This document shows positions 56,155 to 56,923 of a DNA stretch of 64,000 bases, one piece after another (the stretch's first letter is position 1; each line of letters opens with the position of its first letter). The notes under the pieces were generated by a model, which worked only from the letters and a program-made list of their open reading frames with translations, did not search any database and was not told the DNA's origin. The translations under genes and the position numbers were made by a program. The stretch is from Escherichia coli (lineage in GTDB: Bacteria; Pseudomonadota; Gammaproteobacteria; Enterobacterales; Enterobacteriaceae): the NCBI RefSeq assembly GCF_003334355.1, contig NZ_QOWP01000001.1; one strand, written 5' to 3'.

Positions 56155-56550
56155 TTAACGGATTTCATTCAATAGTTCTGGATGCTTATCCAGAACACGT
56201 AAAAGTTTGATTGTGGAAGGATGAGGTTGGGCATTGCCTTTTTCGTAACGCGAAAACGCATTTACACCTCCCCCAAAAATTTCGCTTGCCTCTTTTTGGG
56301 TAAGAGAGAGCTTTTTTCGAACCTTCACTATAAATTCAGGTGCCACTGTTTCGGCATTCACCGAAGCCCGAAATGCCTTTACTTGCGCCATGAAAGCATC
56401 TGACTCTTCTTTATTCATGATGCTCTCTTCGCAATGGACACAATATAAACCGTGGATACCTTTCAATACTGTTTTTCGTCCACGGAAGGTGTATGGAATA
56501 TCTTTAATGCCAGAAACCATTTCTCCCTGGTGGCAAACCGGACATTTCAT
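56155..56550 (-). CDS. mqsA: Antitoxin MqsA (zinc-ribbon plus HTH-XRE)
   Basis: 131-aa ORF MKCPVCHQGEMVSGIKDIPYTFRGRKTVLKGIHGLYCVHCEE. Confidence 0.93.
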   Translation of the reverse strand: MKCPVCHQGEMVSGIKDIPYTFRGRKTVLKGIHGLYCVHCEESIMNKEESDAFMAQVKAFRASVNAETVAPEFIVKVRKKLSLTQKEASEIFGGGVNAFSRYEKGNAQPHPSTIKLLRVLDKHPELLNEIR

Positions 56551-56551
56551 A

Positions 56552-56848
56552 TTACTTCTCCTTAAACGAGACGATCAGTACGTCATGAATTACCGTAATT
56601 TTAAGATAAACCTGGCCTGTAACAAGCCTGGGTCTGTAAACATCCTGCCAGATAGTATGATCAGAGTAGGTGGTCATGCTTTTATAAAAGTCGCTCTCTG
56701 ATAATCCAATGATAACATTACACATACCATCAAAATCCAAACCTAACTCATCTGCATTTAACAGGGCACTACGTGTTGTACGAACTTGCCCGGCATTGAC
56801 AAGTTTTTTAACCTGACTCAAACGTGTATATGGTGTGCGTTTTTCCAT
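56552..56848 (-). CDS. mqsR: Toxin MqsR (mRNA interferase)
   Basis: 98-aa ORF MEKRTPYTRLSQVKKLVNAGQVRTTRSALLNADELGLDFDGM; immediately upstream of mqsA. Confidence 0.93.
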   Translation of the reverse strand: MEKRTPYTRLSQVKKLVNAGQVRTTRSALLNADELGLDFDGMCNVIIGLSESDFYKSMTTYSDHTIWQDVYRPRLVTGQVYLKITVIHDVLIVSFKEK

Positions 56849-56876
56849 AACCCCCGCCTCCCTGTTACTTTAGTTA

Positions 56877-56923
56877 TAACCTAAAAGGTTAATTACAGCA
56901 ATGAAAAAGCACCTAAAAGGTTA
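56877..56923. promoter_or_regulatory. MqsA operator palindromes in mqsRA promoter
   Basis: taacctaaaaggttaa (56877-56892) and acctaaaaggtta (56911-56923), both ACCT-N4-AGGT palindromes, about 30-75 bp upstream of mqsR. Confidence 0.6.

Follow-up and report, generated by a model that had tools for sequence, protein, structure and literature searches.

Several type II toxin-antitoxin modules are arranged in reverse order, with the toxin gene preceding that of the antitoxin; besides mqsRA, they include higBA, hicAB and rnlAB. For mqsRA, crystal structures exist of both proteins and of the antitoxin bound to the very operator found in the DNA studied here. The mqsRA module resembles higBA, hicAB, rnlAB and RelE-fold toxins in placing the toxin first, in having an antitoxin with a C-terminal HTH-XRE domain and in the RelE-like character of MqsR, whose fold has been described as such (PMC2791442). 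Unlike in those modules, MqsA has an N-terminal domain that is zinc-binding and fully structured, and MqsR is ribosome-independent, specific for GCU, and works as a derepressor, not as a co-repressor (PMC4803016). Homologues from other proteobacteria, such as PP_4205/PP_4204 of Pseudomonas putida, share with the E. coli system the toxin-first order, the MqsR residues K56, Q68, Y81 and K96, and an ACCT-N3-AGGT sequence upstream; they differ from it in that their proteins are only 27-67% identical.

The locus described here lies within a window of 64,000 nucleotides, the whole stretch of E. coli DNA that was analysed. It is, to near certainty, the intact chromosomal E. coli mqsRA type II toxin-antitoxin operon, read from the minus strand. 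The interval singled out in the earlier note, 56155-56923, comprises two adjoining open reading frames, both on the minus strand according to the ORF list; it starts at the base that completes the mqsA stop codon and finishes at the outer end of the extended distal operator palindrome. No strand had been given for it, and mqsR, mqsA and the operators are all minus-strand readings. The claim that the toxin precedes the antitoxin is borne out, as mqsR (98 codons for amino acids; ORF list, PF15723, PDB 3HI2_B) runs from 56848 to 56552 and is followed by the gene for the antitoxin and repressor, mqsA (131 codons; ORF list, PDB, TIGR03830), from 56550 to 56155. So is the description of the module as a known system, its identity as mqsRA being attested by PDB, TIGR03830, PF15723 and RefSeq alike. 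A single nucleotide separates the TAA of mqsR from the ATG of mqsA. Direct reading places a Shine-Dalgarno sequence, GGGAGG, at 56857-56862, 8 nt before the mqsR start codon, and another, AAGGAG, at 56558-56563 within the last codons of mqsR, serving mqsA; both are on the minus strand. RefSeq annotation gives the locus the names mqsR and mqsA in some 2,300 genomes of E. coli, in the neighbourhood parC-ygiS-mqsA-mqsR-ygiV-ygiW-qseBC. Nothing that we found contradicts the identification, and the module is intact, every catalytic, interface, zinc and DNA-contact residue being present.

The antitoxin is identical over all 131 residues to the protein in PDB entries 2KZ8, 3GN5 and 3O9X. It scores 146.7 bits against the NCBIfam model for the MqsA family, TIGR03830 (cutoff 61.8), and 43.7 bits against that for the YgiT zinc finger, TIGR03831 (cutoff 20.2), and PF15731 is on record for an identical protein. 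MqsA consists of an N-terminal zinc domain and a C-terminal HTH-XRE domain responsible for DNA binding and dimerisation. The cysteines suggested as zinc ligands on the basis of the raw translation fall in CPVC at residues 3-6 and CVHC at residues 37-40, and match the published ligands Cys3, Cys6, Cys37 and Cys40 (PMC2791442). Entry 3O9X represents the MqsA-DNA complex, and the protein in it is 100% identical to the one encoded here. Asn97 and Arg101 make DNA contacts (PMC5422877); both are present, and in an alignment of homologues Asn97 is kept in 8 of 9 sequences while position 101 is R or K in all. Beyond the family, HigA-2 structures give a weak sequence match to MqsA (E about 5e-4).

The toxin matches the Pfam model PF15723 (MqsR_toxin) over its entire length (model positions 1-95 of 95, E=4.2e-34). 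No NCBIfam model matched MqsR, and that library probably lacks an HMM for the family. Against chain B of PDB 3HI2, 97 of 98 residues are identical, the sole difference being a tyrosine in place of histidine at position 7 (H7Y). The residues K56, Q68, Y81 and K96, at each of which alanine lowers toxicity (PMC2791442), are present and invariant across 9 aligned homologues. The K-12 protein is a GCU-specific, ribosome-independent endoribonuclease (reviewed in PMC4803016), and on the strength of that published work the copy encoded here, with its 97 identical residues, would be expected to have the same GCU-specific activity. We also counted GCU sites in the module itself. There is one in mqsR, where base composition predicts about 3.4, and three in mqsA, where it predicts about 4.5; these differences are too weak to be read as a signal of self-protection, and the idea was dropped. 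The gene directly downstream of the module, ygiS (54415-56022), which the literature reports as an MqsR target, has a GCU density of 26.7 per kb (43 sites), the window mean being 17.3.

Two palindromes had been noticed upstream of mqsR and written as ACCT-N4-AGGT. The pair is real, but the spacer was misjudged by one base: the N4 form has no match in the window, and the actual sites read ACCT-N3-AGGT. This sequence occurs only twice in the 64 kb (56879-56889 and 56911-56921; 0.35 matches are expected from shuffles), both times no more than 75 bp upstream of the start of mqsR. We estimate the chance of two such matches falling in one 100-bp stretch at about 1e-7. Each copy extends to the identical 13-mer ACCTAAAAGGTTA on the plus strand. 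The proximal operator, palindrome 1, is a perfect 15-bp palindrome at 56877-56891 (TAACCTTTTAGGTTA on the gene strand) with its core at 56879-56889; the distal one, palindrome 2, occupies 56911-56923 and is made up of an 11-bp core, 56911-56921, plus a TA that lengthens one arm as far as 56923. Their centres are 32 bp apart, about three helical turns, and this spacing would place both MqsA dimers on the same face of the DNA. The MqsA motif has been defined as AACCT(N)3AGGTT, with two copies in the mqsRA promoter, palindrome 1 being 15 bp long, palindrome 2 being 11 bp long and their starts lying 34 bp apart (PMC4894380). The palindromes in the window equal the published sites both in length (15 and 11 bp) and in offset (34 bp), and the operator assignment thus agrees with published binding data.

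The placement of the operon promoter, pRA, we infer by eye and from comparison with homologues. Its putative hexamers, on the minus strand within 56873-56901, are a -35 TTGCTG at 56901-56896 and a -10 TATAAC at 56878-56873, separated by a 17-nt spacer; the start site would lie near 56866. The presence of AGGTTATAAT at the equivalent place in plasmid homologues supports this placement. With the hexamers so positioned, palindrome 1 fills the spacer between them and overlaps the first two bases of the putative -10, and palindrome 2 is situated some 10 bp upstream of the putative -35. Our sigma-70 scan, which demands a T at the last -10 position, left pRA uncalled, its TATAAC ending in C. Work in K-12 has described pRA as weak and repressed by MqsA, and has shown that two promoters within mqsR, constitutive and not subject to regulation, drive mqsA (Fraikin et al. 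2019, PMC6918082). The same study located a sigma-70 site in the mqsR reading frame with a start site 8 nt downstream, and a second start 111 nt further upstream (PMC6918082). Both have plausible counterparts in the window. The only sigma-70-like match that the scan returned between 55900 and 57200 is TTGTTA-16 nt-TAAAAT at 56598-56625 on the minus strand, with a predicted start near 56590; we take it as the likely pA1, which would drive mqsA independently of mqsR. An extended -10, TGtTATCAT, at 56709-56717 on the same strand (predicted start near 56701) is inferred to be pA2. The -10 elements of pA2 and pA1 end exactly 111 nt apart, pA2 being the upstream one, and this is the distance published for the two start sites.

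A hairpin is found at either side of the module. The intrinsic terminator after mqsA (56118-56149, minus strand) consists of an 11-bp stem, formed in the region of GAAAAGCGGGG and ACUCGCUUUUU, followed by a U-run; the terminator scan missed it and it was recovered by folding (-12.8 kcal/mol, z = -2.96). The scan did return a GC-rich hairpin with a T-rich tail at 56994-57012, minus strand, in the interval that separates the ygiV stop codon from the mqsRA promoter (-10.9 kcal/mol, z = -4.96; none of 200 shuffles was as stable). This second hairpin, which is part of the accessory cassette described below, probably ends ygiV transcription and insulates the cassette.

The regulatory circuit that these elements would serve has been worked out on a sequence identical to the present one apart from H7Y. 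By that account, the weak sigma-70 promoter pRA would transcribe mqsR and then mqsA (PMC6918082). MqsA dimers would bind both palindromes through their C-terminal HTH-XRE domains, bend the DNA and repress pRA, while the zinc-stabilised N-terminal domain would bind and neutralise MqsR, leaving its active site uncovered. As MqsR competes with DNA for an overlapping surface of MqsA, toxin in excess would strip the antitoxin off the DNA and thereby derepress the operon, instead of acting as a co-repressor. Free MqsR would then cut mRNA at GCU and, less often, at GCA (PMC4803016, PMC2791442). Additional mqsA transcripts from pA2 and pA1 would keep the antitoxin in excess (PMC6918082), and the need for extra mqsA promoters can be traced to the toxin gene coming first. 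Autorepression by MqsA, derepression by MqsR and neutralisation are published for K-12 (PMC6918082, PMC4803016), whose promoter and MqsA have the same sequence as those in the window, and may be expected to apply here as well.

K-12 indeed provides the closest comparison. Its mqsR (b3022) and mqsA (ygiT, b3021) occupy the same locus, with the same neighbours, and encode an MqsA that is 100% identical. Operators, internal promoters and terminators are identical too, and over 56100-57050 only one base of 951 differs (56830, the base responsible for H7Y). The window is ordinary E. coli chromosome, but about 50 differences in the surrounding 13 kb show that its strain is not K-12. The closest complete genome is that of strain OW1E2. 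With respect to this genome, the window has a one-base indel at 45182, within dkgA, and an indel at about 36048, in the yghX region; dkgA and yghX are both annotated as frameshifted in OW1E2. A further difference lies in parC, whose codon 211 (minus strand, window position 53646) is CTG, for leucine; K-12 and OW1E2 have T on the plus strand, making the codon CAG (glutamine). Residue 211 is outside the quinolone-resistance region of ParC, in which S80 and E84 are wild type, and the Logan contig of run SRR10357312 has the same base. The window yielded no tRNA genes. Rfam gave hits that exceed the gathering score for the small RNAs C0719 (2578-2799, 298 bits) and ES173 (44825-44888), and for the REP-derived naRNA4/CssrE on both strands (28038-28114).

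Relatives of the module are widespread on plasmids. In alpha-, beta- and gamma-proteobacteria, tblastn detected MqsR homologues on 81 plasmids, of which 34 are predicted to be conjugative; among 50,697 phage records it detected none. We retrieved nine of the plasmid loci for comparison. All nine have the toxin first, with a gap of 1-3 nt or a 4-nt overlap between the genes. Upstream of mqsR, two AACCT-N3-AGGTT-like sites, 31-33 bp apart, are present in three independent lineages, namely Rahnella together with the nearly identical Enterobacteriaceae Kacie_13, Legionella israelensis, and Magnetospirillum; the MqsR copies on these plasmids have 37-66% tblastn identity to that of E. coli. By our estimate a random 160-nt stretch holds such a paired-site pattern with a probability of about 0.002. 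The arms of the homologous operators are conserved and the spacers differ (CAA, TTG, TTA, TAG, CCT), a combination of constant arms and free spacers of the kind expected for the operator of a dimeric HTH protein. Experiments in P. putida reached the same conclusion about the operator, which in that organism is a single palindrome (PMC5422877). The number of sites thus varies in the family, from one in P. putida to two in several plasmid copies, as in E. coli; Rhizobium WL3 has one perfect palindrome. On a plasmid of Aureimonas sp. SA4125, the MqsA-family antitoxin (1009-1428) is without the four zinc cysteines, and no ACCT-N3-AGGT palindrome is found upstream of mqsR (upstream of 701). This branch may fold and be regulated differently.

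In E. coli the module is part of a sharply delimited accessory cassette. Alignment with O157:H7 strain ATCC 43894 and with strain EC11, both mqsRA-negative, defines a unit of 927 bp (56124-57050), in place of which these genomes have only TTCCC. Its right edge lies 2 bp after the ygiV stop codon and its left edge about 100 bp upstream of the ygiS start, and no terminal repeats were seen at the junctions. Enclosed by these limits are mqsR and mqsA, their operator-promoter region and the hairpins that flank the unit, namely the insulating one and the terminator. The GC content is 0.40-0.43 inside the cassette versus 0.49-0.58 in the flanks. The module was found, always with at least 99% identity, in 2299 of 5426 complete E. 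coli genomes (about 42%), and the genes flanking the cassette in 5426 of 5426. Low GC, plasmid-borne homologues and presence in under half of E. coli genomes lead us to conclude that the cassette was most likely acquired horizontally, as a self-contained unit. Complete genomes display three alleles at this position: mqsRA, the TTCCC empty site (as in O157:H7), and an empty site that also lacks ygiS (as in EC11). Where the site is empty, just 108 bp separate ygiV from ygiS. The locus has been struck by insertion sequences on several occasions: the O121 strain 201805972 has an IS1 between ygiV and the mqsRA operators, strain ECCHD184 has ISKpn26 within mqsR, with mqsA intact, and in strain H9Ecoli an IS1 is found where mqsA through ygiZ is missing.

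Two features of the locus lend themselves to readings other than those favoured here. It could be argued that the palindromes are products of chance, sites for another factor or elements of RNA structure. Short palindromes do arise by chance, and shuffles yield a third of a match or so (0.35) per 64 kb. However, here two identical 13-bp copies, the only ones in the window, sit 32 bp from each other just upstream of mqsR, EMSA and mutational evidence has been published for MqsA sites (PMC4894380, PMC5422877), and homologues down to about 37% identity keep the arms while the spacers vary. Such an origin is hardly credible, and we regard the palindromes as MqsA operators. The other feature is the base at 56830, which is A in the window and G in K-12 and in OW1E2, changing mqsR codon 7 (minus strand) from CAT to TAT. 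We considered a sequencing artefact and rejected it because 19 independent contigs in public data encode the identical protein; they derive from isolates as well as metagenomes, and each has it in the same chromosomal context. One of the relevant sequences, from Logan run SRR10357312, matches the window with 100% identity across 6.3 kb (53552-59848). One could envision that the tyrosine attenuates or alters MqsR, in its folding, its toxicity or its binding to MqsA, and marks a weakened or decaying module. The allele is certainly rare, 19 contigs set against the canonical protein in nearly all of the approximately 2,300 complete genomes, and His7 is kept in the closer homologues (5 of 8). Yet an H7A mutant is as toxic as wild type, residue 7 being listed as unimportant for toxicity, and the MqsR residues named at the MqsA interface do not include it (PMC2791442). 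Distant homologues naturally have E or T at this position, and the H7Y allele rides on at least three flanking haplotypes with the rest of the cassette identical and intact. Attenuation is, in our judgment, very unlikely. The wild-type toxicity of H7A, the residues found in distant homologues and the several haplotypes lead us to consider H7Y most likely a rare, natural and neutral polymorphism, with the proviso that the residue assayed was alanine and not tyrosine. Several of the H7Y contigs also carry a change of the ygiS start codon (56021) from ATG to AAG; in these, gene callers extend the reading frame to a TTG at 56085, giving 556 aa instead of 535 aa.

A more evenly balanced question concerns what the module does for its host. 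The earlier note had presented it as marking a stress and persistence module. Several papers report just that: stress, bile, biofilm and persistence phenotypes have been attributed to mqsRA by other groups, and MqsA has been described to bind the rpoS and csgD promoters, in a literature that extends to cspD regulation, bile tolerance through ygiS and control of ghoST (PMC4894380, PMC4803016). The label is contested by Fraikin et al. (2019), who used single-copy reporters and clean deletions and saw none of the effects on rpoS, csgD, cspD, bile tolerance through ygiS or ghoST; they found no role in oxidative or bile stress or in biofilm formation, and MqsA at physiological levels was no global regulator and did not control rpoS, csgD or cspD (PMC6918082). 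Their findings support a reading that rivals the functional label, though not the identification as mqsRA: the module could be a selfish, addictive cassette, at most active in phage defence, that stands outside the regulatory networks of E. coli. Several observations speak for such a nature: 58% of complete E. coli genomes lack the cassette and show a clean empty site, its GC is low, its homologues are found on 81 plasmids, 34 of them conjugative, and an insertion sequence disrupts the toxin gene in one strain. Against it stand the phenotypes reported by other groups; in addition, neither MqsR nor MqsA matches the PADLOC 2023 defence models above noise, and no MqsR homologue was found in the phage collection. 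PADLOC assigned no defence system, and all it gave were weak matches between the HTH of MqsA and RmrA models. We would give the selfish-cassette reading the same weight as its negation. An accessory, possibly selfish element fits the patchy distribution, the low GC, the plasmid relatives and the IS-disrupted toxin at least as well as the functional label does, and between the two we see roughly even odds.

The molecular details of mqsRA are already known, and apart from one amino-acid change the module is ordinary. As it ranks among the best-characterised toxin-antitoxin systems, its discovery value is small; its interest is rather that of a positive control, since a reading of the raw sequence obtained the genes, their order, the zinc ligands and the operator positions, and erred only in the spacer, by one base. 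New in the present work are the map of the operators in this strain, together with the three promoters and two hairpins, the exact edges of the cassette and the sequence of the empty site. One might go further and propose that H7Y changes the behaviour of the toxin, for instance its stability or its balance with MqsA, and that the 927-bp unit is a mobile cassette with precise limits which, once gained beside ygiS, rewired the intergenic region between ygiV and ygiS. We hold this combination to be highly improbable; a toxin-changing H7Y and a mobile cassette would, even if true, leave the known workings of mqsRA unaltered. As for the biology of E. coli, mqsRA should be called a stress and persistence module only with reserve, the label being contested.
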